Source of the DNA: Clostridia bacterium
GTDB taxonomy: Bacteria; Bacillota; Clostridia; Oscillospirales; RGIG5299
Length of the DNA: 64,000 nt
Assembly (NCBI GenBank): GCA_017504945.1
Contig: JAFVQJ010000023.1
Span: 11,745 to 75,744 of the forward strand
Direction of reading: 5' to 3'
Position 1 is the first letter of the stretch. Every line of letters begins with the position of its first letter. Shown here in pieces: positions 4,602-27,867 of the stretch. Both the position numbers and the translations under genes were made by a program. The notes under the pieces are model-generated. The model was not told the DNA's origin and ran no database searches. It saw only the letters and a list, made by a program, of their open reading frames with translations.

Positions 4602-5780
4602 ATGAATTACAGAAGCGATAAATACGGAAATAATCTCTCTTGTCTTGGATTCGGCTGTATGCGCTTTACACGCAATATGGGAAAGCTCGATTTCGAAAAG
4701 GCGGAACGGGAAATAATGCTTGCCGTTGAAAACGGAGTAAACTATTTCGACACGGCGTATATCTATCCCGGAAGCGAGGCGCTTCTCGGCGAGATAGTTT
4801 ATAAAAACGGAATAAGAGATAAGATAAATATTGCAACGAAGCTTCCGCATTACCTTATTAAAAGCCGCGAAACGCTTGACAAGATGTTTGACGAGCAGTT
4901 AAAGCGGTTGCGTACCGACCACGTTGACTACTATCTTATGCATATGCTCACGGATATCGGCGCGTGGGAGCGTATGAAAGAACTCGGAATAGAGGACTGG
5001 ATAGCCGAAAAGAAGGCGTGCGGTCAGATAAGGCAGATAGGCTTTTCCTACCACGGCAACAGCGAGATGTTTTGCACTCTCGTTGACGCCTATTTGTGGG
5101 ATTTTGCGATGATACAGTATAACTATATGGACGAGCATTCGCAGGCGGGCAAAAAGGGGCTTCAATATGCAAGCTCGAAGGGGCTTGCCGTTATGATAAT
5201 GGAGCCGCTTCGCGGCGGACGTCTTGTAAACCGTCTGCCCGACGAGGTGCTGAAGCTGTTTGCAAGCTCGAAAAGAAATATAACTCCTGCCGCGTGGGCG
5301 CTCAAATGGCTTTACGATCAGCCCGAGGTGACGGTGGTGCTTTCGGGTATGAATTCGAGCGAGATGGTTGCGGAAAATATTAAAACGGCATCGGAAAGCT
5401 TTGTCGGCGAGCTTGATGAATCCGATAAGGAGCTGCTTGCAAGGGTCGTAAAGGCGATAAACAAGAGGATAAAGGTAGGCTGCACCGGCTGCGGATATTG
5501 TGTGCCCTGTCCGCAGAAGGTGGATATTCCCGGCATATTCTCCGCCTATAACCGCCGCTATTCAGAGGGCAAATACAAGGCGCTTAAGGAATATATGATG
5601 TGTACTACTCTCAGAAAGGACTCGACTGCCGCTTCGAACTGCATCGGCTGCGGCAAATGCGAAAAGCACTGTCCGCAGGCGATACCGATAAGGGAAAAGC
5701 TTAAGGAGGCACAAAAGGAGCTTGAGGGTCCTATTTACAAAATAGCGAGCAAGGTTGCAAAAAAAGCAGTTAAGTTTTAA
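4602..5780 (+). CDS. Aldo/keto reductase with C-terminal 4Fe-4S dicluster domain
   Basis: LGFGCMR, NYFDTAYIY, IATKLP, MEPLRGG; C-terminal CTGCGYCVPCP and CIGCGKCEKHCP. Confidence 0.92.
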   Translation: MNYRSDKYGNNLSCLGFGCMRFTRNMGKLDFEKAEREIMLAVENGVNYFDTAYIYPGSEALLGEIVYKNGIRDKINIATKLPHYLIKSRETLDKMFDEQLKRLRTDHVDYYLMHMLTDIGAWERMKELGIEDWIAEKKACGQIRQIGFSYHGNSEMFCTLVDAYLWDFAMIQYNYMDEHSQAGKKGLQYASSKGLAVMIMEPLRGGRLVNRLPDEVLKLFASSKRNITPAAWALKWLYDQPEVTVVLSGMNSSEMVAENIKTASESFVGELDESDKELLARVVKAINKRIKVGCTGCGYCVPCPQKVDIPGIFSAYNRRYSEGKYKALKEYMMCTTLRKDSTAASNCIGCGKCEKHCPQAIPIREKLKEAQKELEGPIYKIASKVAKKAVKF

Positions 5781-15696: not shown

Positions 15697-17106
15697 ATGG
15701 TTAAAAAAATTTTATTGATCCTTACCGTCGTTGTAATGCTTTTGCCGTTTGCCTCCTGCGGAGCAAAGCCCGCATTGGCAGACTACGTAGTAACCTACGG
15801 CGCGGGTGAGAAAAAGGCGGCAGAGCTACTTGTAGAAAAAATCAAGGAAAAGACGGGTATTGCTCTTGAGCTTGTGGCAGAAAACACCGTAAACAGCGAT
15901 CTGGTGATCTCTGTGAATGCAGATGAGGTCGGAAACTTCGAGGGAAACCTTGGATACGATGACTTTACCGTATATACCGAGGGTAAAGGTCTTCACATTG
16001 TCGGCGGCTCCGACTATGCAACGAATACTGCCGTTACAAGACTCGTAAAGCTGATGAGTGCCAATCCTGACGAATTTGACGTGGCAAAGCTTTCACTTTC
16101 CTACGCGTTACCGTCGAGAGAGGAATATATCCAAAATCCCGAAAAGCTTGCACTCCATTGGGAATCGGATTTCGAAACACCATCGTGGATGCTGGATTTT
16201 GAAGAGAAATACAGAGCGATGACAGACGTTGACGGAAGACTTATCTCGTGCTTACACCGCGGAGAAGCAGTCTATTATCCCGAAAACTCAATAGAGGGAA
16301 TAATAAGTGCGATATATATGGGCGGCGATATGATAGAGATCGACCCGCGCCTTACCAAAGACGGAGTTTTCGTCTTAATGCACGATGAAACCCTCGGCCG
16401 CACCACAGACGTCTATTCAAAGGTCGGTAAAAACGGATTGCCATCAACGGTAAATATAAGCGATTGGACCTATGAGCAGCTTATGCAGCTGAACTTAAAG
16501 GATGCAAGCGGAGACGTCACACCTTATAAGATACCCACCCTTGAGGAGGCTATAAAGGTCTCTGCAAACCGAATTTTCATAAGACTTGACGTCAAGGGCC
16601 CCACGGGAAGCGATCTTCCGTTTTGGGATTTTGAAAAGGATATCTGGCCGCTTCTGGAAAAATATAACTGTCACTCAACCGTGCTTTATACCTGGCAAAA
16701 ATTTTTCCGTGCAGACAGCTTTAAGCTTGTAAAGAAATACCGTAACCTTTCGGAGAAAGCCTCGGGAAAAGCAATGCTTGGCTTTTTGAATAACAAAACC
16801 ACGGCAGATGATGCACTTAAGGTTATCGAAAATCACGATCTTGCTTATGCAATGAGACTCTCCTTCAATTTAAGCGAATTCGGCTACAATACCTTCCTTT
16901 CCGAAAATAAGGACAGGCTTGATGGTTTTAAGGGCAAAATAAGAATTTATGCCGACGTTCACAACACAAACCCGAAATATCCGCAAAACAAGGAATCTTA
17001 CGAGCTTTACGAAACGCTTTATAACGCGGGAATAAACGTTCAGCTTGCAGACAAAAGTATCCTGATATGCAAATACGTTGCGGAAAACTTCACCGCAACG
17101 AAGTAA
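15697..17106 (+). CDS. Lipoprotein glycerophosphodiester phosphodiesterase with N-terminal accessory domain
   Basis: Lipobox FASC; HRG..YPENSI, IEIDPRLTKDGVFVLMHD, IPTLEE. Confidence 0.85.
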   Translation: MVKKILLILTVVVMLLPFASCGAKPALADYVVTYGAGEKKAAELLVEKIKEKTGIALELVAENTVNSDLVISVNADEVGNFEGNLGYDDFTVYTEGKGLHIVGGSDYATNTAVTRLVKLMSANPDEFDVAKLSLSYALPSREEYIQNPEKLALHWESDFETPSWMLDFEEKYRAMTDVDGRLISCLHRGEAVYYPENSIEGIISAIYMGGDMIEIDPRLTKDGVFVLMHDETLGRTTDVYSKVGKNGLPSTVNISDWTYEQLMQLNLKDASGDVTPYKIPTLEEAIKVSANRIFIRLDVKGPTGSDLPFWDFEKDIWPLLEKYNCHSTVLYTWQKFFRADSFKLVKKYRNLSEKASGKAMLGFLNNKTTADDALKVIENHDLAYAMRLSFNLSEFGYNTFLSENKDRLDGFKGKIRIYADVHNTNPKYPQNKESYELYETLYNAGINVQLADKSILICKYVAENFTATK

Positions 17107-17130
17107 ATCAAAAACAAAAAAGCTATCCCA

Positions 17131-17166
17131 TTGCGAGACTTCTCATAAGGAAGTCTCGCAGTTTTA
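17131..17166 (+). terminator. Terminator after the phosphodiesterase gene
   Basis: TGCGAGACTTC-TCATAAG-GAAGTCTCGCA followed by GTTTTAT. Confidence 0.7.
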
Positions 17167-17340
17167 TTCGCCAAATATATTTGGCGAGTGATATTGCTTC
17201 GCAGTGATATGATGCTTCGCATCGTGATATTCGGCTACGCCGAGTTTGGCGAATAAAATAACACTGAAACCGCAAGGTTTCAATAACACTATTGCGTAAG
17301 CGATAATATCACTCCGACAAAGTCGGAATATAACTCTTGC
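17161..17340. repeat. Hairpin-ladder element A (GTGATAT-like x4, then ATATCAC-like x4, interleaved with mini-hairpins)
   Basis: GTTTTAT 17161; GTGATAT 17188, 17204, 17224; ATAACAC 17258, 17283; ATATCAC 17306; ATATAAC 17328; palindromic spacers. Confidence 0.85.
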
Positions 17341-17365
17341 TTTCTCAGCAGATTTTTGATATAAT
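17337..17365 (+). promoter_or_regulatory. sigma-A promoter with extended -10, abutting ladder A
   Basis: TTGCTT (17337-42), 17 nt, TATAAT (17360-65) preceded by TG. Confidence 0.7.
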
Positions 17366-17505
17366 ACAATCAGCATGATAGGGGTATGGGCTTTGCCCTA
17401 TGCCTTTGTAATACAAAGGCGAAACTGGCGATAAAACGGAATGACAAATTCTCATTTAGCAAATAGTTGAATTAATCAAAAATTACAATATATGGAGGAA
17501 TTAAA

Positions 17506-17931
17506 ATGAATAAAATTCAAAAAAGAGATTTGTTGGGATTTTTTGTTTTTTTGCTGATTTTAGTTGCTATTTTTTGTATATCTGTTTTTGTATATCCAAT
17601 GTGTTTGACAAGTGAAGGCTATTCGGGTGAACATGTCACCCCAAGCCTGAAAGAAATAATAAAATCTATGTTGTTCTTTATTCCAATTATATTATCTTTT
17701 TTTGCTGCAATATATCTCTATTATTTTGCTTTAAAATTCAAGAGATTTAATAAGTTGGTTTTTCCGTGTATTGTTATTGATGCTACGGTTTTAGTATTTT
17801 TGGGTGGTATCGCATTATGCGGTGGAGCTTTTTTGTGGTTAATGTTTTTAATAATTCCCGCTTCTTTTGTCTTGTTCATTTTAGGAATTATTTTTGGTTG
17901 GAAACTTGATAACAAATCCAAAAAGGCATAA
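17506..17931 (+). CDS. AT-rich orphan membrane protein (about four TM helices)
   Basis: RBS GGAGGA; very hydrophobic; base composition visibly more AT-rich than the flanking genes. Confidence 0.75.
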   Translation: MNKIQKRDLLGFFVFLLILVAIFCISVFVYPMCLTSEGYSGEHVTPSLKEIIKSMLFFIPIILSFFAAIYLYYFALKFKRFNKLVFPCIVIDATVLVFLGGIALCGGAFLWLMFLIIPASFVLFILGIIFGWKLDNKSKKA

Positions 17932-17965
17932 AAAATTCAACAGATTTCAGTTTATCGAATATATA

Positions 17966-18010
17966 AAGATCCCCGACAGACGTTTTAAAAATCTGTCGGG
18001 GTTATCTCTT
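17966..18010 (+). terminator. Terminator after the orphan gene
   Basis: CCCCGACAGA...TCTGTCGGGG stem followed by a T-rich tail. Confidence 0.7.
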
Positions 18011-18040
18011 TGTTTTCTGAGGATCAAATATCGCTTATCC

Positions 18041-18088
18041 GTAGGGGTGTTCTTTGAACGCCCGCGGACGAACACAGCTCGTCCCTAC
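18041..18088. repeat. GTAG-type REP doublet (REPIN-like)
   Basis: GTAGGGGTGTTCTTTGAACGCCCG followed by the inverted unit CGGACGAACACAGCTCGTCCCTAC. Confidence 0.65.
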
Positions 18089-18167
18089 CGTGTATTGGTA
18101 AAAATATTTTGAAATTTTTCGCTAATTCTGCACGCCCTTCGGGATAGCTTTTTTAATTTGTAAAAGC

Positions 18168-20117
18168 TTACACAGCCTTGAGCCTGTTGCTCTTGCTTTT
18201 TACTACCTGCAGGATAACGGGAACCGCGATCAGCGCAACGCCGATAAGGTCGGTAACGAGTCCGGGGTAGATGAGAAGCAGACCGCCTGCGGCGCTCGGA
18301 ATTCTCTCATACCATTTCATATTGGTAAGGAAATATCCCTCAAGCGAAGCAGATACCGCAAATATGCCTATAAACGAGGTTATGCAGATGAGGATTACCT
18401 CGGGGACGTTTGTATCGATAAGGAGCATTGCGGGGTTTAGTGCAAAAACGTAAGGAACGATAAACGCGCCGATAGCAAGCTTTGTTGCGGTAAACGCCGT
18501 TTTCATTGGGTTTGCCTGTGCAATCGCGGCGCCCGCATAAGCGGCAAGTGCAACGGGCGGAGTGAGGTCGGCAACGATACCGAAATAGAAAACGAAGAAG
18601 TGAGCGGCAATGGGGGGAATACCGAGCTCAACCAGAATGGGAGCGCAGGTAGCCGCCATAATGCAGTAGTTTGCGGTGGTGGGAACACCCATGCCCAAAA
18701 CTATGCAGCAAAGCATCGTGAGGAAGAGGGCGATTATCTTAACGTTGCCCGCAATGGAAATAATGCCGTTAAAGAGAAGGTAAGCAAGACCTGTTGAGGT
18801 GATAAGTCCCGCAACGATACCTGCAACACCGCAGGCTGCGGCGACGGTTATCATACCCTGACCGCCTGCCGCCAACGCTTCAAGCAAGCGCTTGGGGGTA
18901 ATGCGGGTATTTTTGTTAAAGAGGCTTACCAAAATTGCGGCAACTATCGCAATAGCTGCGGCGTAGGCTATTGAATAGGTGCTGGTGCCTACGAGGTAGA
19001 TAAGGAGAAGAAGGGGGAAAAGCAGGTAGCACTGCTTTAAAAGGGGCTTTAGCTTGGGAAGCTCTTCCTTTGTAAGACCCTTAAGTCCCATCTTCTTTGC
19101 CTCAAGATGAACCGTGATAAATACGCCCGCGAAATAGAGAACTGCAGGCAAAATCGCCTTTACCACTATGTTTGAATAAGAAACGCCGAGAGTTTCAGCC
19201 ATAAGGAAGGCGGCGGCGCCCATAATAGGAGGCATTATCTGACCGCCCGTTGAAGCCGAAGCCTCTGCCGCGGCGGCAAATTCGGGCTTATAGCCGGTGC
19301 GCTTCATGAGAGGAATGGTAACTGCGCCCGAGCCTACGGTATTTGCAACCGACGAGCCCGAGACCATACCCTCGAGAGCCGAAGCAACAACAGCAACCTT
19401 TGCGGGACCGCCGGAGAAGCGTCCGACAAAGGCGTTAGAGATGTTAATAAAGAAATCGGCAATGCCGGTGCGCTCAAGAAATGCGCCGAATATAATGAAT
19501 ACCACTATGTATTTCGAGCAAACGTTAATGGGGGTTGAAAGTATGCCCTCCTTGGAATAGAAGAGAACGCGAACGGTCTCGGTTATTCTTGCAAGGAAAT
19601 TGGGGTTGGTTGAGCCCCAGATAAGCGCATAGACGAGAAGCACGCCCGCAACGACGAGTATCGGAATACCGACGCTTCTGCGGCAAAGCTCGGCAAGACA
19701 CAAAATGCCGATGATGCCGATTATCATTTCAAAAGTGGATATTTTAAAGTTGGAAACTATCCTTGTTGCGTTAAAGCAATAGTAAAGGAAGGAGCCGGTG
19801 CCGAGCACCAGAAAAATTATATCGTACCACGGAATATGATTTACCTTCTGCGTACCCTTTTGTGCGGGGAAAACGAGAAATCCGATAAAGGTGATAAACG
19901 CCATAAAAGAGGTAAGACGGATCTCGTCGAGCCAGGTTGCAAAAAGGGTAACGTAAAGACAGAATACCGCAAAGGTGGCAAGAATTGCCGTAACTATCCA
20001 CTTGGGAGCGCCTTCCCATATTCTTACGTTTGACTCACGGTCAAACTTTTTCATTACGTCGTCAAGCGACATGGCTTCTGCGGCTTCGGGAACGTTTTTC
20101 TTTTTGAAAAGTGCCAT
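18168..20117 (-). CDS. TRAP transporter fused permease (4TM/12TM, TAXI-type)
   Basis: GGPAKVAVVAS, SGSSVAN, EASASTGGQIMPPIMGAAAF, LGMGVPTTANY, ADLTPPVALAAY. Confidence 0.93.
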   Translation of the reverse strand: MALFKKKNVPEAAEAMSLDDVMKKFDRESNVRIWEGAPKWIVTAILATFAVFCLYVTLFATWLDEIRLTSFMAFITFIGFLVFPAQKGTQKVNHIPWYDIIFLVLGTGSFLYYCFNATRIVSNFKISTFEMIIGIIGILCLAELCRRSVGIPILVVAGVLLVYALIWGSTNPNFLARITETVRVLFYSKEGILSTPINVCSKYIVVFIIFGAFLERTGIADFFINISNAFVGRFSGGPAKVAVVASALEGMVSGSSVANTVGSGAVTIPLMKRTGYKPEFAAAAEASASTGGQIMPPIMGAAAFLMAETLGVSYSNIVVKAILPAVLYFAGVFITVHLEAKKMGLKGLTKEELPKLKPLLKQCYLLFPLLLLIYLVGTSTYSIAYAAAIAIVAAILVSLFNKNTRITPKRLLEALAAGGQGMITVAAACGVAGIVAGLITSTGLAYLLFNGIISIAGNVKIIALFLTMLCCIVLGMGVPTTANYCIMAATCAPILVELGIPPIAAHFFVFYFGIVADLTPPVALAAYAGAAIAQANPMKTAFTATKLAIGAFIVPYVFALNPAMLLIDTNVPEVILICITSFIGIFAVSASLEGYFLTNMKWYERIPSAAGGLLLIYPGLVTDLIGVALIAVPVILQVVKSKSNRLKAV

Positions 20118-20143
20118 GATGACCTCCTGGGAATATGATAAGC

Positions 20144-20180
20144 AAAAAAATGGCTGAAGCGTTAACTGCAGCCATTTTTA
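20144..20180 (-). terminator. Intergenic stem-loop between the TAXI binding-protein gene and the permease gene
   Basis: AAAAAATGGCTG...CAGCCATTTTT. Confidence 0.55.
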
Positions 20181-20199
20181 AAAGACCTGCTAAAGAAAA

Positions 20200-21150
20200 T
20201 TATTCGGAAACTACGGTAATATTCTTTTCTGCAAAATATTTTGCGGCGCCCTTGTGGAAGGGAACGGTGATACCCTCGGTAGCATTCTCGAGAGAAAGCT
20301 CTGCGCCCTTTGCGTGAGCGGCAGTGATAGAGTCGATATTATCGAAGATAGCCTTGGTGATATTGTAAACGTCCTCCTCGGAGGCGTTTGCGCTTACGAT
20401 AAGGGTTGCCTTAACGGTAACGGTGGTTATCTCCTCGGTCTGACCGCTGTAGGTGCCTGCGGGGATCTTGTAAACGCTGTAGAAGGGTGAAGCCTGAAGA
20501 AGAGTGGATGCAACCTCGCCGCTGATGTCGATAAGGTGAGCCTTGCCGTTGGTGTAGAGCTCCTGAATTGCGGGAGTGGGAGCGCCTGCAACAACGAATG
20601 CTGCGTCGATCTTTCTGTTGGTAAGGTTGTCTGCCGAATCTGCAAACGACTGATACTGAGGAATTATATCGTTCTCGGTAAGACCTGCTGCGTTAAGAAT
20701 GTCGATAGCGTTGAAGTAAACGCCCGAGCCCGGAGCGCCGATGGAAACCTTTTTGCCTTTGAGGTCGGCAACGGATTTGATGTTGGGGTCGGAGGTAACG
20801 AGCTGAACTGCCTCGGCGTAAAGACCGCCGATTACGCGGAAGGACTTAACTGCGCCGTCTGCCTCGAAGGAGCGGGTGCCTGCCCAAGCGTAAGACATAA
20901 CGTCTGACTGAACGGTGCCGAGCTGATAGTTGTCAGAGTCGATACCGATGATGTTAGCCTTGGAGCCGTCGGTTGAAACAACGTTGATATTGATGCCGGT
21001 GGTCTGCTTTATCTGGTTGCCGAGTATGCCGCCGTAACCGTAGTAGGTGCCTGCGGTGCCGCCTGTGCCCATCGTCATCATAGAGCCGCCGCAGGATGCG
21101 AGTGAGAATATAACTGCGACTGCCAATAAAAGTGCAATGATTTTTTTCAT
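20200..21150 (-). CDS. TAXI-family TRAP solute-binding lipoprotein
   Basis: Lipobox LASC; TGGTAGTYY, TDGSKANI, DLKGKKVSIGAPGSG, PFHKGAAKYF. Confidence 0.93.
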   Translation of the reverse strand: MKKIIALLLAVAVIFSLASCGGSMMTMGTGGTAGTYYGYGGILGNQIKQTTGININVVSTDGSKANIIGIDSDNYQLGTVQSDVMSYAWAGTRSFEADGAVKSFRVIGGLYAEAVQLVTSDPNIKSVADLKGKKVSIGAPGSGVYFNAIDILNAAGLTENDIIPQYQSFADSADNLTNRKIDAAFVVAGAPTPAIQELYTNGKAHLIDISGEVASTLLQASPFYSVYKIPAGTYSGQTEEITTVTVKATLIVSANASEEDVYNITKAIFDNIDSITAAHAKGAELSLENATEGITVPFHKGAAKYFAEKNITVVSE

Positions 21151-21297
21151 TTTTGTTCTCCTTGTTTATTAAAGTGTAACATATATTATACATAATATTT
21201 TATCATTTTGCAAGTCTTTGTTTATTTATTGTTACAAATATCCAAAAAAATCAAGCTTTTTCACACTTATAAGCGCTGTTTTTTGGTTATTTTCAAC

Positions 21298-21334
21298 AAA
21301 AAAGCGTCCCGCCTTTGCAAGCGGGACGTTTTTT
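21298..21334 (-). terminator. Terminator after the aconitase X operon
   Basis: AAAAAGCGTCCCGC...GCGGGACGTTTTTT. Confidence 0.75.
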
Positions 21335-21345
21335 ATTCGGTATAT

Positions 21346-21789
21346 TTATTCAACGGTAACGGTGCCGTCTTTTGAAACGGTTATCTTCATTCCGTCCTTG
21401 ACGTAATTTAAAAACTCGTCGCCAAGACAGTCGATAACGGGCATTGAAACGTTTTCCACCCAAACGTCTGCCAATATTGCGCCTGCGGCTGCAAGCGAGT
21501 CGATATGGCTTGCAAAGAGCATGCAGGCGGGATTTTTCTCCATGGCGCAGGCACAGTAGAGCACCAAGCCGCCGGTGGTGGAGCCTATAGTCTGCGGAAG
21601 GCAAAGAGCCTTATTTATAAGCGGCTTGCCGTGAAGCTGCTTGTTGTTCTGGTCGCCGCATTTTACCTCTTTGTCGCCAAACTGCAGAGCCATCTGAAAT
21701 GATGCGAGGGTGTTAAAGCCTTCGGTGGTAACTACTGCCTCAGCCGTTACCTCGCCGGGAGTAATAACTCTTCCTTTAAACTGTTTCAT
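21346..21789 (-). CDS. Aconitase X small (swivel) subunit, DUF126
   Basis: GRVITPGEVTAEAVV...LHGKPLINKALCLPQTIGSTTGG...IDSLAAAGA; TAATG overlap with the large subunit. Confidence 0.85.
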   Translation of the reverse strand: MKQFKGRVITPGEVTAEAVVTTEGFNTLASFQMALQFGDKEVKCGDQNNKQLHGKPLINKALCLPQTIGSTTGGLVLYCACAMEKNPACMLFASHIDSLAAAGAILADVWVENVSMPVIDCLGDEFLNYVKDGMKITVSKDGTVTVE

Positions 21790-23057
21790 TATCTTTTACC
21801 TCCGTTCGTAATTGCCTCGAGGATCTCCGCGTCGGTGTAATATCTTGCGCTGGTGTAGGTGCGGAGCTTGTTTGAGGAGGTTATAACGGGCATCGTCTTG
21901 CAAAGGGGATTGTTCATATACATAAGCGGGCAGATATACGAGGTGATAACGCCCGTTTTTTCAAGCCTTTTTGCATATTCCGTTTCGTTAAACGCCTTTA
22001 AGACCTTGGGAGCGGCGGTAAATACGGTGGGAATTACAACCTTTTTGCCCTGAAGCTTTTCTTCAAGCTTAACAGTCCAATCCTTTAATTGCTCGAGAGA
22101 AAGGTGAGGACAGCCTACAAAGCAAAGCTTGGGAGCGGCATCGGGATTTTTCCATATAACGGGATAGTTGTTTTTAACTCTTTCGAGCTCGGCGTCGTCT
22201 ATAACATATTCCTTTGCGCCCTCTGCGATGAGCTTTGCACCAAGCGAGACTGCCTCGGGAGTGAGGTTTTCAATGTGGTAAAGACCTACCGCGCCGTTTG
22301 AAGCGGTTGCGGCGCCGAAATCCTTGAGGTATGCGCAGGCGGCATCGTTAAGCTCGGTGCCTATCCATTTATCAAGACCCGAAACGTAAGGCACGTCCTC
22401 CATTACCTTCATACCGATAGCGGAGCCGAGCAGCTGTGCCTCGGGCTTTTTTGTGGTGTTTATCTTTACTATCCAGGTGGCCTTTCTGCCCTCGTCGGTG
22501 AGAAGTCCGAAATAGGGAACGTAGCCCACGATAGAGCCCATAATATCGATAATTCCCGAGTTTCTGTTGCATCGTGCGCCAAGCACCGAGTTTGCGTAAA
22601 CGACGGCGCTCGATTCAGCCCACGAGAGAACCTCTCCCATCTTCGGCTTGTTGCCCATTTCGTCCATATAGCAGGTGCAGGAGAAGGCGTCGTCGTTCAT
22701 AAGACCGAGCTCCTTAAGCTGCTTCTCGTAGAAATCCTGCTTGGTATACATAAATTTGTTAAAAACGAGATTCTGAAGAAAATTTGCGGGAACGTTTTTG
22801 TCAAGCGGACGGGGGTCGACCGAAAACTGCTGACCGCTTGCAACGCCTGCATCGAGGAGCTTTTGCATAAGGTCGTAAACGGGCGACATTACCTTAAGTC
22901 CGAAGGATGTGACGAGATGGTTGTATTTCGAGGTGATGGGCACGAGCTTTTCAGCCTCGAAGGCGTCGCCGTACATAACGAGTGTCTTCATGACCTTGGC
23001 AAGAGTTTCACCCTTCTCGCCGTCTAAAATTGCCTGCTGTTCTTTGGTGAGTATCAT
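21789..23057 (-). CDS. Aconitase X large (catalytic) subunit, DUF521
   Basis: MILTKEQQAILDGEKGE, FSCTCY, WAESSAVVYANSVLGARCNRN, LKDFGAATASNGAVGLYHI..LTPEA, GCPHLS. Confidence 0.9.
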   Translation of the reverse strand: MILTKEQQAILDGEKGETLAKVMKTLVMYGDAFEAEKLVPITSKYNHLVTSFGLKVMSPVYDLMQKLLDAGVASGQQFSVDPRPLDKNVPANFLQNLVFNKFMYTKQDFYEKQLKELGLMNDDAFSCTCYMDEMGNKPKMGEVLSWAESSAVVYANSVLGARCNRNSGIIDIMGSIVGYVPYFGLLTDEGRKATWIVKINTTKKPEAQLLGSAIGMKVMEDVPYVSGLDKWIGTELNDAACAYLKDFGAATASNGAVGLYHIENLTPEAVSLGAKLIAEGAKEYVIDDAELERVKNNYPVIWKNPDAAPKLCFVGCPHLSLEQLKDWTVKLEEKLQGKKVVIPTVFTAAPKVLKAFNETEYAKRLEKTGVITSYICPLMYMNNPLCKTMPVITSSNKLRTYTSARYYTDAEILEAITNGGKR

Positions 23058-23072
23058 TTCATTTCCTCCCTA

Positions 23073-25142
23073 TCAAAGCTTCATTGCAACGTCCCAAGCG
23101 CCCCAGATAACGGAGCGAAGGTTTCCGACCTTAAGAGCGTCGCCTATAACGTGAACGTTTTTACCCTTAACGGCAAGAGGTGCGGGATTATAGCCTACCG
23201 AGGTGATTACCGAATCGGCGTCTATCTCAAACGTTTTGCCTTCCTTATCCTTGAGCAGTACCTTTCCGTCATTTATCTCGCAAACGCCCGTTTCGAGATA
23301 GACGGGAAGGTCGTTTGCCTTGAAGCAGTCACGCAGATAGCTGGTGTTTGCAAGGCAGATGCCGGGAGTGGTGATAAGGTCGTCCTGCATTTCGACTATC
23401 GCGGGCTTTTTGCCGCCAAGGAAAAGCTCGTAGGCGATCTCACAGCCGGTAAGGCCGCCGCCGATAATAACGACGTTTTCGCCGACCTCCTTCTTTCCGA
23501 GGAGAAAATCAATAGCCTCGATTGCCTTTTCGGCGCCCTTTATAGGAATTTTCTTTGCCACCGCACCGGTTGCGATTATTATCTCGTCGGCGCCGAGTGA
23601 TGAGAGGTCTTTAACCTCGGTGTTCATCTTTATCTCAATGGGATATTTCGCTATCTCGCGGTTATACCAAGCGATAAGCGCTCTGTCCTTCTCCTTGAAG
23701 GAGGGAGTCGCCGCGGCAATAAACACGCCGCCGAGGTTATCGGACTTTTCGTAAAGAATAACGCTGTGGCCTCTCTTTGCGCAAACTATTGCGGCCTCCA
23801 TACCGCCTATACCGCCGCCGATAACGGCAATTTTCTTTGCCTTCTTTGCGGGCTCGATCTTATATTTTTCCGACTGCATAGTTCTCGGATTGAGAGCGCA
23901 TCTTGCAAGACCCATAGTGTCCTTGAGGTCCTGAGTGTTGGCATGTCCCTTTGATGATGAGAAGTTAAAGCAGCCTGCGTGACAGCAGATGCAGGGCTTT
24001 ATGTCCTCCACCCTGTCCTCTATCATTTTGGTTATCCACTCGGGGTCGGTAAGGAACTGACGTGCAACGCCGACGGCGTCGATCTTTCCGTCCGAAACTG
24101 CCTTGGCACCGACCTCGGCGTCCATTCTTCCGGCGCAGACGACGGGGATATTGACGAATTTCTTTATATGAGCAACGTCCTCAAGGTTGCAGTTTTCGGG
24201 CATATACATAGGCGGATGAGCCCAGTACCACGAGTCGTAGGTGCCGTTGTCGGCGTTGAGCATATCGTAGCCGGCGTCCTCAAGATATTTTGCCGCCTTT
24301 TCCGATTCAGCCATATTTCTGCCTACCTCAACGTAGTCCTCACCGGGCATTGCGCCTTCGCAAAAGCCCTTCATCTTGGACTCGACGGAATAACGGAGCG
24401 AAACGGGGAAATCGTCGCCGCAGGACTCCTTTATAGCCTTTACTATTTCGGTTGCGAAGCGGTAACGGTTTTCAAAGCTGCCGCCGTAATCGTCCTCGCG
24501 CTTGTTGAAGAATTCTATTGCAAACTGATCGAGCAAATAGCCTTCGTGGACAGCGTGGACCTCAACGCCGTCAACGCCGGCGTCCTTACAAAGCTTTGCG
24601 GTCTTTGCAAAAGCCTCGATTATCTCGTGGATCTGCTCGAGAGTCATTTCGGGGCAGATGATGTCGTGCGCCCAGCGCGAAGGCTGTGCAGAGGGACTTG
24701 CAAGCTCGTGAGAGGTGTCTAACACGGGCTTTATAAGGGCGCGCGTGAATTTGTTTTTGTGTAAAGGAGCAACGAGCTCGGTAATTGCCCAGGAGCGACC
24801 CATACCTGCGGTAAGCTGAACGAAAAGCTTTGCGCCGGTCTTGTGGATCTCATCCATAAACTCCTTTAATTCCTCAAACATTTTGGGGTTTTGCCAAAGC
24901 CACTTACCCCAGAAGGTATCACGAAGGGGAGCGATGCCGGGGATAATAAGACCTACGTTATTGTTTGCTCTTTCAAGGAAAAGCCTTGCAGCCTCCTTGT
25001 CGAAATGACATCCGCCGAGCTCGAACCAGCCGAAAAGCGAGGTGCCGCCCATAGGACACATAACGATACGGTTTTTGATCTCTACGTTGCCTATCTTCCA
25101 AGGGGTAAACAACGCTTCGTATTTTTTATCGATTTTCTCCAT
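23073..25142 (-). CDS. Old-yellow-enzyme family 2-enoate reductase-like flavoprotein (FMN, 4Fe-4S, FAD/NADH)
   Basis: LFTPWKIG..EIKNRIVM, HAVHEGYL, CICCHAGC...C, two Rossmann motifs GGGIGG and GGGLTG. Confidence 0.88.
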   Translation of the reverse strand: MEKIDKKYEALFTPWKIGNVEIKNRIVMCPMGGTSLFGWFELGGCHFDKEAARLFLERANNNVGLIIPGIAPLRDTFWGKWLWQNPKMFEELKEFMDEIHKTGAKLFVQLTAGMGRSWAITELVAPLHKNKFTRALIKPVLDTSHELASPSAQPSRWAHDIICPEMTLEQIHEIIEAFAKTAKLCKDAGVDGVEVHAVHEGYLLDQFAIEFFNKREDDYGGSFENRYRFATEIVKAIKESCGDDFPVSLRYSVESKMKGFCEGAMPGEDYVEVGRNMAESEKAAKYLEDAGYDMLNADNGTYDSWYWAHPPMYMPENCNLEDVAHIKKFVNIPVVCAGRMDAEVGAKAVSDGKIDAVGVARQFLTDPEWITKMIEDRVEDIKPCICCHAGCFNFSSSKGHANTQDLKDTMGLARCALNPRTMQSEKYKIEPAKKAKKIAVIGGGIGGMEAAIVCAKRGHSVILYEKSDNLGGVFIAAATPSFKEKDRALIAWYNREIAKYPIEIKMNTEVKDLSSLGADEIIIATGAVAKKIPIKGAEKAIEAIDFLLGKKEVGENVVIIGGGLTGCEIAYELFLGGKKPAIVEMQDDLITTPGICLANTSYLRDCFKANDLPVYLETGVCEINDGKVLLKDKEGKTFEIDADSVITSVGYNPAPLAVKGKNVHVIGDALKVGNLRSVIWGAWDVAMKL

Positions 25143-25236
25143 TTTCGTCTATCCTTTCATAGATATGATTATATTATACATCAAAAATCAAAATATGTAA
25201 AGAAAAATCCCCGCGAAGAAAAACGCGGGGAAAAAA

Positions 25237-25626
25237 TTATTTTTGTTTTTCCAAAACGTAGGTATTGAAGTCGCCGGGTGCGGTTATCGTCTTATCCTTT
25301 GCATTGTAATAGAGCTCTCTGAACCCGAGCATGCCGCTGCCGGTATCGACCCAAACTACCGTATATTTTGCGGTGGAGTCGTCATCGTCCTCATCGTCGA
25401 CCTCGGTAAGAGTTCCCTGATGAGTGGAGGTGTTGTTGTAATAGGTATCGGTGTAAACGCAGGTGATGGATTCTCCGTCGATCTCAAAGGTGAAATCGGC
25501 ATAGCCCTGTGAAACGTGATAAGTGCCGTCAACTCCGTCGCTGCCGCCGGGAAGTGTGCAGGAGGCAAGAATGGCGAAAATACAAGCCAAAACCGCCACG
25601 ACCGCCAAAGACTTTTTGAAATTCAT
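25237..25626 (-). CDS. Small lipoprotein of unknown function
   Basis: Signal peptide with lipobox LASC; beta-rich acidic body. Confidence 0.7.
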   Translation of the reverse strand: MNFKKSLAVVAVLACIFAILASCTLPGGSDGVDGTYHVSQGYADFTFEIDGESITCVYTDTYYNNTSTHQGTLTEVDDEDDDDSTAKYTVVWVDTGSGMLGFRELYYNAKDKTITAPGDFNTYVLEKQK

Positions 25627-25628
25627 AT

Positions 25629-26585
25629 TTAAAGCTCCTTTAAAAATTCTTTTTCAATTTGATTTTTGAAATTCTTTCCTGTTTCGCAAATATAGCGAAG
25701 GGTGGGTAAAAGCATATCCTCGTTTACCTCAAGGGCGGCGATCGCCTGCCTGAAGGTCTCGAAGCTGAGGTCGCCCTCGTAGCCTATTTCCTTAAGAGAA
25801 TTACAAAAATGATTCCAGTTTATATTTCCCGCCATCGGTGCAAGGTGCGCGTCCGTCGTGCCGTCGTTATCGTGAATATGCAGGCATTTTATTCGTTTTC
25901 CCAATACGGGAACGAAAACCCTGAAATCCTTTGAAAGAAGCCGTATATGCCCCGTATCAAGACAGAAGCCGAATACCGCTTTTCCCGCCTTGGCGTTTAA
26001 GCTGTCGATATATTCCGCCGCCTCGTAAGGATCGGAGCATACGCCCTCGATAACGGGACCGCCGCCTGCGGTAAAGAGATTTTCAAGACAAACGGTAACG
26101 TCGCATTTCAAAAGAGTGGGGATAAGCGACTCGTAAAGGCGGTAATTCAATCTCTTTACCGAAGCCGCCGTGTTGACGTTATCGCCGAGCGAAAGAGAGA
26201 TACCGTGGATAACGAGCCTTTTGCACCCAACACTGTTGCAGACCTCAATTACTTTTTTATAAATTTCGGTCATATCGTCGAGAATCTCGGGGGAAGAAGA
26301 CAGATAAGCGGGGAACGGAGCGTGAGCTTGGGTGATAAAGAGTCCCGCTTCTTTTATTGCGTAAAGCTCCTCCTTGAAATATTCAAGCACCTCATTTAAC
26401 GGGCGGAAATAGATGCAGTCCTTTCTTTTTTCGCCGTCGAAAATGACGCTTCGCGGACAGGCGTGCTCAACGCCGTTCCAATCAACAGCGTCAAAGCCTG
26501 CCTCGGCAATCAGACGGTAGCATTTTTTTGCGCCGAGATGCTCTATAATTCCACCGCTTTGAACTGAAATTTTCATAACGCTCAC
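25629..26585 (-). CDS. Sugar phosphate isomerase/epimerase family TIM barrel (AP endonuclease 2 fold)
   Basis: VCLENL, FCLDTGH, LHIHDNDG..DAHLAP..GNINW, SFE. Confidence 0.85.
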   Translation of the reverse strand: MSVMKISVQSGGIIEHLGAKKCYRLIAEAGFDAVDWNGVEHACPRSVIFDGEKRKDCIYFRPLNEVLEYFKEELYAIKEAGLFITQAHAPFPAYLSSSPEILDDMTEIYKKVIEVCNSVGCKRLVIHGISLSLGDNVNTAASVKRLNYRLYESLIPTLLKCDVTVCLENLFTAGGGPVIEGVCSDPYEAAEYIDSLNAKAGKAVFGFCLDTGHIRLLSKDFRVFVPVLGKRIKCLHIHDNDGTTDAHLAPMAGNINWNHFCNSLKEIGYEGDLSFETFRQAIAALEVNEDMLLPTLRYICETGKNFKNQIEKEFLKEL

Positions 26586-26980
26586 TCCTTTGAGGTTTTA
26601 AACAGAAAACGCTTTGCCAAAAGCTCTGCAAAAAAGAATAAAAGACAGCCTATTGCGTAGCAGACGATATCGAAAACGGAAAAGCTTCTTCCGAGTAAAA
26701 TAACGAAGAAAAGTATTTTGTGAAGCCCCAAAAGCTTTACGAAATCAAAATACTGAAGTATCTCGACCGCTGTCGAAAAGAGAAAGACGTAAAGAGGCAA
26801 AAGCGTAAGCTTTTTCGGGAAAAATATTCGTATAAAGGCGCACATAAAGGCGGCAAAAAGGATATCTCCGCCGTAGGGTCTTATAAAGCTGTCCCTCACG
26901 AAAAGGGTGATGATGAGTTCAATAACAAATAAAGCCGCTGTCAAGACGCCGTAAAAAGCTCTTTCCTTTTTCAATGGCAA
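26582..26980 (-). CDS. DUF2809-type membrane protein
   Basis: FVRDSFIRPYGGDIL..., AVEILQY, LGRSFSVFDIVCYAIG; probable TTG start at 26980. Confidence 0.75.
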   Translation of the reverse strand: MPLKKERAFYGVLTAALFVIELIITLFVRDSFIRPYGGDILFAAFMCAFIRIFFPKKLTLLPLYVFLFSTAVEILQYFDFVKLLGLHKILFFVILLGRSFSVFDIVCYAIGCLLFFFAELLAKRFLFKTSKE

Positions 26981-27067
26981 TGCACCTGCCTTTTTATTGA
27001 TTATAGCACACTCCCGCAAATAAATCAAGATGTGGTATTGTATATCGCCATTGCTTTTGCAATGGAT

Positions 27068-27100
27068 AAAAAAATCCAAGTCCGAAGACTTGGATTTTTT
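27068..27100 (-). terminator. Terminator after the small orphan gene
   Basis: AAAAAATCCAAGT-CCGAAG-ACTTGGATTTTTT. Confidence 0.75.
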
Positions 27101-27129
27101 GGCTGTTACGAATTATTATGGTGCCACTA

Positions 27130-27312
27130 TTATTTGTTTGATTTTAATATTTTAAGAAAAACAAAGAAAAGAACAATTGAAATTAAATGCAAGATGATAG
27201 CAATTATTGATATAATTATATGTAGCTCGATAAATAGACCAACAAGGTGAATAAACGAAGCTGTCAAAATGCAGAATAAAGCTAATAAAGAAACAATCTT
27301 TTCTTTTTTCAT
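27130..27312 (-). CDS. Very AT-rich 60-aa orphan membrane protein (two TM helices)
   Basis: RBS GGAG upstream, hydrophobic sequence, own promoter and terminator. Confidence 0.55.
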   Translation of the reverse strand: MKKEKIVSLLALFCILTASFIHLVGLFIELHIIISIIAIILHLISIVLFFVFLKILKSNK

Positions 27313-27433
27313 AATATTAACACTCCAATAAAGCTATATTACATATTTTTGTTTGCTGATTGAAACGTTGGGACAAATAGAATTATCTTATGAAAAGATT
27401 AAATTTTTCATAAACGTACCGCCCTTTTTTGTT

Positions 27434-27462
27434 ATTATATCATAAATTCATATACTTGTCAA
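27434..27462 (-). promoter_or_regulatory. Consensus sigma-A promoter with extended -10, abutting ladder B
   Basis: Minus strand: TTGACA (27457-62), 17 nt, TATAAT (27434-39) preceded by TG. Confidence 0.8.
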
Positions 27463-27635
27463 ATGATGCATCGCCTGCGGCGATATGATGTTTTTCGCTT
27501 CGCTCAAAATGATGTTGCTCCACTGCGTTCCGCAATGATGCGATGTTTGCCCAATGTGCCGCAAGGCACACATCATTAGGCGCAGCCGTCATCATTGGCG
27601 AAGCCGTCATCATTTGCCGCAGGCAAACATCATTC
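27461..27635. repeat. Hairpin-ladder element B (ATGATG x4, then CATCAT x4, interleaved with mini-hairpins)
   Basis: ATGATG at 27463, 27485, 27509, 27535; CATCAT at 27571, 27590, 27608, 27628. Confidence 0.88.
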
Positions 27636-27676
27636 AAAAAACGCACCTTTGTCGGTAGACAAAAGTGCGTTTTTTG
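27636..27676 (-). terminator. Terminator after the tRNA operon
   Basis: AAAAAACGCAC(C)TTTGTC-GGTA-GACAAAAGTGCGTTTTTT directly 3' of the tRNA-Tyr CCA. Confidence 0.75.
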
Positions 27677-27677
27677 T

Positions 27678-27763
27678 TGGTGGGGGAAGGTGGATTCGGA
27701 CCACCGAAGCTGAAAAGCAACAGATTTACAGTCTGCCCCCTTTGGCCACTCGGGAATTCCCCC
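27678..27763 (-). tRNA. tRNA-Tyr (GTA)
   Basis: GGGGGAATTCCCGAGTGGCCAAAGGGGGCAGACTGTAAATCTG...CCACCTTCCCCCACCA; long variable arm; encoded CCA. Confidence 0.95.
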
Positions 27764-27791: not shown

Positions 27792-27867
27792 TGGAGCTGG
27801 TGAACGGAATCGAACCATCAACCTGCTGATTACAAATCAGCTGCTCTGCCGATTGAGCTACACCAGC
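27792..27867 (-). tRNA. tRNA-Thr (TGT)
   Basis: GCTGGTGTAGCTCAATCGGCAGAGCAGCTGATTTGTAATCAGCAGGTTGATGGTTCGATTCCGTTCACCAGCTCCA, 76 nt. Confidence 0.96.

Follow-up and report, generated by a model that had tools for sequence, protein, structure and literature searches.

The 64,000-nt stretch of DNA analyzed here (the window; contig JAFVQJ010000023.1 of the Clostridia bacterium assembly GCA_017504945.1, positions 11,745 to 75,744) contains two loci at which a small orphan gene stands behind a promoter and an array of regularly spaced heptamers and hairpins, hereafter called the ladder. According to our in silico analysis, both loci are probably copies of one family of modular, non-autonomous mobile expression cassettes of gut Clostridia with exchangeable cargo. 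We observed the cassette in the loop of a host intrinsic terminator (locus 1) or directly behind a tRNA gene (locus 2); its presence varies between congeners, and its cargo differs while the flanking modules stay constant. The cargo of locus 1 encodes a 141-aa predicted membrane protein (17506–17931, + strand; GC 0.29) and that of locus 2 a 60-aa predicted membrane protein (27130–27312, − strand; GC 0.235), neither of which belongs to a Pfam family, in a genome with a GC content of 0.469. The 141-aa protein has 51 close relatives (67–99% identity), all without a name or a Pfam domain, and no distant relatives.

Gut-1 ladders at the two loci and across the genome

Direct reading and string searches gave the order hairpin H0, ladder, promoter, coding sequence and terminator on the + strand of locus 1, and the order tRNA-Thr, tRNA-Tyr, terminator, ladder, promoter, coding sequence and terminator on the − strand of locus 2. 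At locus 1, the terminal hairpin of the inserted element, H0 (17133–17159), is followed by a T-rich box, F0 (GTTTTAT), and is likely a replacement terminator for the upstream gene. The ladder (17159–17334) is made of four plus four heptamers with hairpins. Its A half (17159–17258), which has C-TNC-G loops and is the Gut-1 motif proper of the Rfam database, carries F0 and three GTGATAT boxes at 17188, 17204 and 17224, each GTGATAT being followed by a short perfect hairpin. In the B half (17258–17334), four ATAWMAC boxes (ATAACAC, ATAACAC, ATATCAC and ATATAAC at 17258, 17283, 17306 and 17328) stand between hairpins with GCAA, GTAA and AAA loops. The outer box X (17162–17175) and the centre box X' (17245–17258) are 100% complementary over 14 nt. 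The cassette promoter, TTGCTT-17-TGATATAAT (17337–17365), has its −35 at 17337–17342 and its −10 at 17357–17365.

On the − strand of locus 2, a terminator that travels with the ladder takes the place of H0 (27636–27675). In this second ladder (27462–27635), four (A)ATGATG boxes with hairpins are followed by CATCAT(T) boxes, and the centre box (27534–27552) pairs with the outer box (27622–27633). The promoter, TTGACA-17-TGATATAAT (27434–27462), has its −35 at 27462–27457 and an extended −10 at 27442–27434. As the initial annotation of this DNA had stated, the −35 lies within 2 nt of the last ladder motif at both loci: it begins 2 nt past the last box at locus 1 and overlaps it by 1 nt at locus 2.

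The ladders had been put forward as an undescribed element. We found that the A half of locus 1 (17159–17235) matches Rfam Gut-1 (RF01706) with 58.6 bits, the gathering cut-off being 50, and that the B half contains an inverted Gut-1 match on the − strand (17253–17336; 25.5 bits, E 0.0078). The ladder of locus 2 scores at most 21.0 bits (E 0.087), below the cut-off, and is assigned to the Gut-1 family by its shared architecture and by intermediate copies, not by score. The earlier statement that the two ladders share no obvious primary sequence has to be revised as well: they belong to one family, with an outer box that pairs with the centre box, the same loop asymmetry and a common RTGAWRT-like core, while their heptamers differ. 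Both fold far more stably than expected, with z-scores of −8.5 and −8.3 as DNA and −8.7 as RNA, and none of 200 shuffles was equally stable.

Gut-1 has been published as a probable non-coding RNA, known from human gut sequence only, and the main text of that work gives it no function (Weinberg et al., 2010, Genome Biol 11:R31, PMC2864571). The only other paper naming Gut-1 that we found uses it in a folding benchmark (PMC13674262). Our search of the literature on Gut-1 and on terminator-loop MITEs in Clostridia, with the supplement of Weinberg et al. (2010) outside its scope, found no paper describing the cassette.

When the Gut-1 model was run on the whole genome (hereafter G000), it gave 56 matches at E ≤ 10, of which 20 exceed the cut-off. 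Since these matches lie mostly as convergent pairs about 20 nt apart, the full unit consists of two mirror-image Gut-1 halves. A ladder detector (a 7-mer with at most one mismatch, at least three times in direct and then at least three times in inverted orientation, with a spacing of 14–30 nt) found 36 places in the 1,378,398-nt genome, both loci included, and none in a shuffled genome; overall, there are about 36–40 copies. Together with the direct reading of both loci, this count upholds the shared architecture that had been described for them. The heptamer is uniform within a copy and varies between copies (GTGATAT, ATGATAT, GTGAAAT, GTGAAGT, ATGAAAT, GTGATGT, AATGATG and others).

We oriented 35 copies by their stronger half (A). 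In 30 of them, an end hairpin (stem of at least 7, at most one mismatch) ends within 12 nt of the A half, in the form of a GC hairpin (for example GGCGTGATACTC-ttaac-GAGTATCACGCC) or of a full A-run/T-run terminator, and stems related to the terminator of locus 2 are also present 5′ of other ladders. The genome has 31 tRNA genes, and 6 of the 35 ladders start no more than 90 nt behind one of them. A strict promoter (TTGNNN, 13–15 nt, TGNTANNNT), sought 120–300 nt from the A start, was found beside 9 of the 30 copies with enough sequence, compared to a frequency of 0.027 in random 180-nt windows, which is an enrichment of about 11-fold. The order hairpin or terminator and then ladder is nearly universal, and the order ladder and then promoter occurs in about a third of the copies. 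Across families, ladder copies are 80–90% identical where the compared stretches of flanking genes are about 70–76% identical.

Base pairing within the ladders is highly regular. In 34 distinct ladders, we counted 1264 Watson-Crick pairs, 10 T:G pairs and 9 A/C oppositions, so that wobble pairs make up about 0.8% of the stem pairs, without strand bias; these counts (10 against 9) were too small for the orientation of a transcript to be read from wobble asymmetry, and this approach was dropped. The A half has loops of the types C-TNC-G or C-TTNC-G, the B half those of the types C-GNA-G or C-GNRA-G, and each strand therefore reads alike. C-GNA-G triloops form unusually stable DNA mini-hairpins. 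When 30 copies of the GTGATAT type, taken from at least 10 genomes, were aligned, 33 consensus pairs were obtained, 15 of them with compensatory change, and the long-range pair between outer and centre box is U-A in 15 copies, C-G in 10, A-U in 2, U-G in 2 and broken in 1. Judged from these substitutions, the ladder pairing is under selection, and the near absence of wobble together with the strand symmetry points to DNA hairpins, which would fit better than an RNA made from one strand.

Two further observations concern the ladders. On two contig segments of this genome outside the window (C21, ~5130–5330 and 800–990), three to five AATCGTTRA repeats with a spacing of about 20 nt lie between ladder and promoter, and look like an operator array. 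In addition, many contigs stop or begin within a ladder (C8 at its end; C23, C19, C26, C28, C29 and C14 at their starts). One and the same ladder closes C8 and opens C23, so that the repeats limit assembly.

Insertion sites and exchange of cargo

At locus 1, the 14-mer AAAAAAGCTATCCC (17116–17129, +) has its exact reverse complement, GGGATAGCTTTTTT, at 18141–18154 (+). They are the arms of a bidirectional host terminator between convergent genes, and all the features of locus 1 lie in its loop. The left arm is found behind a phosphodiesterase-like gene (15697–17106), and the right arm also serves the convergent TRAP permease gene (18168–20117, −). The insertion is about 1 kb long, and both host arms are also present in the congeners G001 and G003. 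At least 8 further copies among the 35 are enclosed by host arms of 9–14 nt, the enclosed spans measuring about 350–390 bp without cargo or about 1040–1730 bp with cargo. Imperfect terminal inverted repeats of about 20 nt (GGCGTGATACTCTTAACGGAG ... CTCCGATAAGGACATCACCC) are present in the short copies and in a copy on G001:C26, and are weak at locus 1 in G000. The initial idea of a platform with exchangeable foreign genes is partly right, but that of a fixed landing pad is not supported: the ladder travels inside the insertion that splits host terminators.

One orthologous site was found both empty and filled. On G003:C150, it is empty and the terminator is intact (GCCGAGAGC-AAAAT-GCTCTCGGC), while on G001:C26 a GTGAAGT-type ladder element lies within the loop of that terminator. 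Behind the same orthologous gene, G000 carries a GTGATAT-type element in the opposite orientation and in a different terminator, and G002 is empty. At two further sites, the element is present in G000 and its congeners have other, intact terminators instead. A 5.7-kb segment on G003:C76, at the site of a G000 element, was considered as an autonomous element and rejected, as it holds only ordinary genes.

At locus 2, the sequences of four congeners part exactly where the CCA of tRNA-Tyr ends. In G001, the 60-aa gene is retained (96% DNA identity) behind another terminator, a 58-nt spacer and a related promoter, and there is no ladder. This orphan is therefore independent of the ladder, and the tie between the two proposed in the initial annotation does not hold for locus 2. 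In G003, tRNA-Tyr is followed by an ATGAAAT-type ladder, another gene and then a further ladder. Both the 60-aa gene and a ladder are absent from G002, in which the 3′ end of tRNA-Tyr occurs once more, about 190 nt past the tRNA gene (C5, ~94,950–95,100), as left by integration at a tRNA. The ladder of locus 2 also recurs with other cargo in other families, where its copies are 87–88% identical: G027 (family f24) carries the terminator and ladder of locus 2 (87% identity), with the −35, behind tRNA-Tyr and before a truncated PF05635 gene, and G016 (f13) carries the same terminator, ladder and −35 behind a different tRNA and with a different gene. It follows that terminator, ladder and −35 travel together as one block.

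The swapping of cargo that the initial annotation had proposed to look for is seen at locus 1, where G000, G001 and G003 carry unrelated cargo between flanks that are 94–98% identical. The site holds the 141-aa orphan in G000, an 83-aa membrane protein in G001, and a Cys-rich protein with an ArsC-like phosphatase in G003, the latter label coming from reading the translation, without a family search. Among these three genomes, identity is 94–98% in the upstream gene, 76–84% in H0 and the A half, with three different H0 hairpins, and 87–93% in the B half and promoter. Between G001 and G003, it amounts to 93% in the leader and 97% in the post-cargo segment, compared to 4% in the cargo. Ten further cassettes in G001, G003, G016 and G040 contain ten different genes (101–188 aa, GC 0.32–0.40). 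Seven of them share a common promoter family, TTGYTTTCTCTGCYGAT..GTGDTATAAT, and a near-identical promoter, TTGTTTTCTCTGCCGATTTGTGTTATAAT, is found in cassettes of G001, G003 and G016.

Other modules recur likewise. At locus 1, the leader is formed by two hairpins (17381–17435, +) and ends just 5′ of the ribosome binding site of the cargo; its pattern, GGGGTATGGGC..GCCC..GCCTTTGTAATACAAAGGCGAAACTGGCGATAAA, is kept in cassettes of many species and matches no Rfam family. The cassette terminator, CCCCGACAGA...TCTGTCGGGG, is located at 17971–18001 (+). Many cassettes in relatives and in a wider scan also have both this leader and the terminator motif CCCCGACAGA..TCTGTCGGGG. Across 21 cassettes, we saw no repeat that the two cargo boundaries have in common. 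A GATAAAT..AATT-like repeat in G001 and G003 was tried as a site-specific core at these boundaries and rejected, as it is not general across the 21. As the simplest reading, we infer that homologous recombination in the conserved modules leads to the exchange of cargo.

We then scanned contigs of one genome per species for the cassette promoter pattern. This gave at least 120 stretches, of which 80 loci were analyzed. The listed records are uncultured Clostridia, Oscillospiraceae or Eubacteriales, and many isolate names point to the ruminant gut. In ladder-less loci, a left inverted repeat, often with a GTAG-type repetitive extragenic palindromic (REP) pair, is found in the place of the ladder, the REPs standing between the left end and the promoter. 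The terminator motif of the locus-1 cassette lies downstream in 24 of the 80 promoter-defined cassettes. The listed loci include 52 complete first open reading frames with a median length of 121 aa and a GC content of 0.385. A Pfam scan of 20 of these 52 cargo proteins matched 13 to a family and 7 to none. The families are DUF559 (two proteins), IS200-like Y1 (three proteins, one above cut-off) and, with one protein each, DMP19, GNAT, HAD, EamA, DUF5104, hexapeptide transferase, DUF3784 and, weakly, DUF7027.

Some features of these loci were noticed in passing. Many cassettes share a long, structured, GC-rich leader (AAAAGCCTCCCTCCGGGAGGGAGG ... GCTCCCTCCCGGAGGGAGCC) that stands between promoter and cargo (L092, L096–L098, L102 and L105; also L012, on G003:C2). 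In ladder-less cassettes within L092–L171, an inverted repeat (CGGCAGAGAA / TTCTCTGCCG) has the −35 of the conserved promoter in its loop. The two-hairpin leader of locus 1 is also present beside ladder elements without cargo, where it is inverted.

The remaining parts of the two loci are as follows. The element of locus 1 contains an inverted pair of GTAG-type REP hairpins (18041–18088, +), of a type that also flanks RAYT-like Y1 genes in relatives, and its right end (TTTTTCGCTAATTCTGCACGCC; 18115–18136, +) is related to CTCCGATAAGRACATCACSC, the right inverted repeat found in other copies. At locus 2, all features are on the − strand. tRNA-Thr (27792–27867) precedes tRNA-Tyr (27678–27763), and the variable region begins directly past the CCA end of the latter. 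The terminator of the 60-aa gene (27068–27100) is followed by the vestigial first hairpin (ATCCATTGCAAAAGCAATGG; 27048–27067) of a TATCATCA-type ladder, by comparison with C28:4915, C18:115633 and C23:82561, and then by the next promoter (27030–27001). The vestigial hairpin and this promoter suggest that cassettes stand in tandem behind tRNA-Tyr.

Linked proteins, proposed mechanism and competing explanations

The initial annotation had proposed to look for a recombinase or nuclease family co-occurring with the ladders. None tracks them, and the only co-occurring family is PF05635, a family of four-helix-bundle (4HB) proteins. All three PF05635 genes of G000 lie directly behind a ladder and a promoter (69–96 bits). 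In 41 genomes, we surveyed the 28 4HB genes with at least 250 nt of upstream sequence, and an array was sought within 420 nt. A ladder-like array was found by 21 of the 28 genes with a relaxed detector and by 11 with the strict one. Among the 7 ladder-less genes, 5 have plain tandem heptamers instead (TAGTTGC, CAAATTG and GCATAAT types), with no hairpins between them (L049–L052, L058). Gut-1 is present in 20 of the 41 genomes and, tabulated with PF05635 (18/2/3/18), gives a Fisher value of 1.1e-6, uncorrected for kinship or linkage. The nearest solved structure is the uncharacterised PDB entry 2RLD (E 2e-29 to one of the three proteins).

We propose that the cassette would begin with an end hairpin (H0, or a full terminator behind a tRNA), followed by the double Gut-1 ladder and by an outward consensus promoter whose −35 would abut the last heptamer. 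A conserved leader would come next, then one small, usually low-GC gene with its own ribosome binding site, a terminator and the right inverted repeat. The splitting of a host terminator would be tolerated because the transcript from upstream would end at H0 and the T-rich box and the unit would be closed off by the cassette terminator, and the element would act as a self-insulated expression unit. Cargo would be swapped via homologous recombination among dispersed copies, in the B half, the promoter, the leader and the terminator. The ladder would be an optional, end-proximal module that functions at the DNA level, through single-strand hairpins, and not by way of a free small RNA, and a probable binding array of the PF05635 4HB proteins that some cassettes encode. 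It is possible, though doubtful, that the Gut-1 ladder is the DNA partner of PF05635 proteins in a broader sense, namely within a new kind of repeat-protein system parallel to REP-RAYT that would assemble and spread terminator-loop-seeking expression cassettes, and thereby shuffle small orphan genes between gut Clostridia, without a classical transposase.

Several results weigh against the reading of both loci as mobile cassettes of one family, or against parts of the mechanism. The strict promoter is absent beside 21 of the 30 ladders, so that the promoter enrichment expected at ladders across the genome is real and does not extend to most copies. In the scan of other species, a ladder was present at only 2 of the 73 listed loci with enough upstream sequence and absent from the other 71. 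The ladder is therefore unnecessary for expression, and is an optional module of a broader chassis. As for the initial idea of a family of structure-defined elements tied to foreign genes, the recurrent module of ladder, promoter, low-GC gene and terminator stands, but the tie to the ladder does not, given the ladder-less loci. The flanks of insertions hint at a target-site duplication of 2–4 nt of A/T, though not a clean one. They read ATT/ATT, ATTT/ATTT and AAT/AAT, but also GTT/ATT; they match over 2–4 nt of A/T in 3 of 5 pairs, with one mismatch in each of the other 2, and the lone pair of empty and filled site is ambiguous. There is no clean insertion boundary at locus 2, where G000 and G001 differ by the whole block of terminator, spacer and −35. 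By Pfam, no Y1, IS110, rve, DDE_Tnp_1, IS256, resolvase or reverse transcriptase was found in G000 (86% complete). With no transposase or recombinase tied to the element, its mobility is deduced from insertion polymorphism alone.

Other points of this kind concern the ladder and its putative partner. Because 4HB genes and ladders are physically linked, their co-occurrence is partly co-inheritance. The 3 4HB genes face at least 8 heptamer variants in the genome, which argues against one-to-one specificity, and the idea of one heptamer per 4HB paralogue was rejected. Contigs of the RNA run X19 hold ladder-like sequence and ladder transcription is therefore possible, although these contigs may stem from other organisms or from DNA.

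The last point also bears on the reading of Gut-1 as a free-standing small non-coding RNA, according to which each ladder would be two convergent intergenic small RNA genes. This reading agrees with the Rfam match above cut-off, with the strong compensatory changes, with the GNRA loops typical of RNA, and with the listing of Gut-1 as a likely non-coding RNA in the text cited above (PMC2864571); the ladder-like contigs of the RNA run add to it weakly, as DNA carry-over is possible. We nevertheless consider it unlikely. The A half lies directly behind a terminator or hairpin with no promoter in front, and the two halves are mirror images with the same design on either strand. Moreover, a wobble content of about 0.8% without strand bias is unusual for a conserved RNA, no loop class is commoner than the triloop C-GNA-G (or its complement), and the element moves as DNA inside an insertion.

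That the ladder lies within the inserted unit and moves along with it also makes it quite improbable that ladders are fixed, integron-like landing pads where cassettes are captured by a site-specific recombinase. The finding that three congeners have different cargo at one position, preceded by the same B half and promoter, would be expected from such a pad, as would the cassettes behind tRNA genes and the second tRNA-Tyr 3′ end in G002. However, the 21 cassettes share no repeat at both cargo boundaries, 71 of 73 cassettes are ladder-less and the gene of locus 2 is ladder-less in G001. A tyrosine recombinase (PF00589) is encoded in G000, but it is the only one and lies far from any ladder.

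We also considered that ladders are arrays resembling REPs or bacterial interspersed mosaic elements (BIMEs), in which heptamer and hairpin would form a REP-like unit moved by an IS200/RAYT-type Y1 (HUH) single-strand transposase. The DNA-like hairpins and the single-stranded terminator loops used as targets are in keeping with this, and a Y1-like protein of about 170 aa with HUH and YIYENP motifs is the cargo in 9 of the 80 locus-1-promoter cassettes (Pfam Y1_Tnp matched 3 of 4 tested, one above cut-off). The distribution of these genes nevertheless leaves little room for the idea. A Y1-like gene is present in 8 of the 41 relatives and shows no association with Gut-1 (4/16/4/17, odds ratio ~1); within the genus, it was found in none of 5 genomes (one of them 97% complete), and it was found in 0 of the 11 genomes with at least 9 Gut-1 matches. 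Y1-like genes are flanked by GTAG-type REPs, not by ladders, and the cassettes that carry them have no ladder. Y1/RAYT was accordingly rejected as the ladder enzyme on its co-occurrence and on its own GTAG REPs. Carriage by phages was rejected as well, as neither ladder region had a blastn match among 50,697 GenBank phage records.

Finally, that ladders are passive intergenic repeats with a host function (mRNA 3′-end protection or insulation, as for REPs of E. coli) in an incidental neighbourhood is very improbable, since the hairpin or terminator before 30 of 35 ladders, the 21 of 30 copies with no adjoining strict promoter and the many copies between convergent genes are outweighed by the about 11-fold promoter enrichment at the B end, the 80–90% identity of copies across families with flanks of about 70–76%, the variable presence at orthologous sites and the specific link to PF05635.

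Significance and comparison with known systems

The probable placement of both loci in one mobile cassette family allows Gut-1, an orphan "gut-only" RNA in Rfam since 2010, to be read as a module of a mobile, self-insulated expression cassette. Such cassettes occupy terminator loops and tRNA tails and take up roughly 1% of this 1.4-Mb genome, with a changing set of cargo (membrane orphans, GNAT, NUDIX, HAD, DUF559, ArsC and Avd-like proteins). If true, this would bear on the spread and the expression of small orphan genes among uncultured gut Clostridia, and on why metagenome-assembled genomes of this kind break at ladder repeats. It would also make the function of the widespread PF05635 "23S rRNA intervening sequence" proteins testable.

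Compared to Gut-1 as modelled in Rfam, the ladders have the same heptamer and hairpin unit (GUGAAAU-type boxes and CUUCG-type loops), the same set of four boxes with a hairpin in each of the three gaps, and the gut as their common habitat. However, the Rfam model is a 77-nt small RNA, whereas the unit described here is about 175 nt long, with two mirror halves and an end hairpin, and lies inside a mobile insertion; it has almost no wobble, and its heptamer varies between copies.

Integron cassettes are single small, often orphan, exchangeable genes beside a structured, recombination-prone repeat, and may stand in tandem. The elements described here resemble them in their exchangeable small genes, their structured repeat and their putative tandem cassettes. 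They differ in having a promoter and a terminator per cassette and in lacking an attC-type site at just one side of the cargo; neither an integron integrase nor attI is evident. The IS200/IS605 group, characterized by a Y1 transposase gene between subterminal hairpins and by the lack of inverted repeats and of a duplication, differs from them, as G000 has no Y1 gene and the ends of the element are inverted repeats. A likeness of another kind comes from the three 4HB proteins of this genome, which match PF05635 and are Avd-like; Avd has been described in complex with a reverse transcriptase (bioRxiv 10.1101/344556). In contrast to that system, G000 has no reverse transcriptase, and the partner would be a heptamer and hairpin array, not the template RNA of a diversity-generating retroelement (DGR).

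The closest known kinds are mobile insertion cassettes (MICs) and REPIN/RAYT. REP and REPIN elements with their RAYT transposases (PMC3116915, PMC3337134) also combine short conserved heads and GC hairpins in inverted sets, are extragenic, multi-copy and non-autonomous, and are linked to one or few protein genes. The head of the ladder is however a 7-mer, RTGAWRT, and not GTAG, each element has 7–8 hairpins of unrelated sequence, and the partner would be a four-helix bundle in place of Y1; true GTAG REPs coexist with the ladders as a separate family. MICs such as MIC231 of Bacillus cereus (PMC6542083) share with our elements the inverted-repeat ends around passenger genes, the absence of a transposase, the multiple copies and the modular cargo. 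For the elements described here no cognate insertion sequence or transposase was found, and they differ from MICs in bringing their own consensus promoter, leader and terminator, in occupying terminator loops and tRNA sites, and in carrying an internal ladder.

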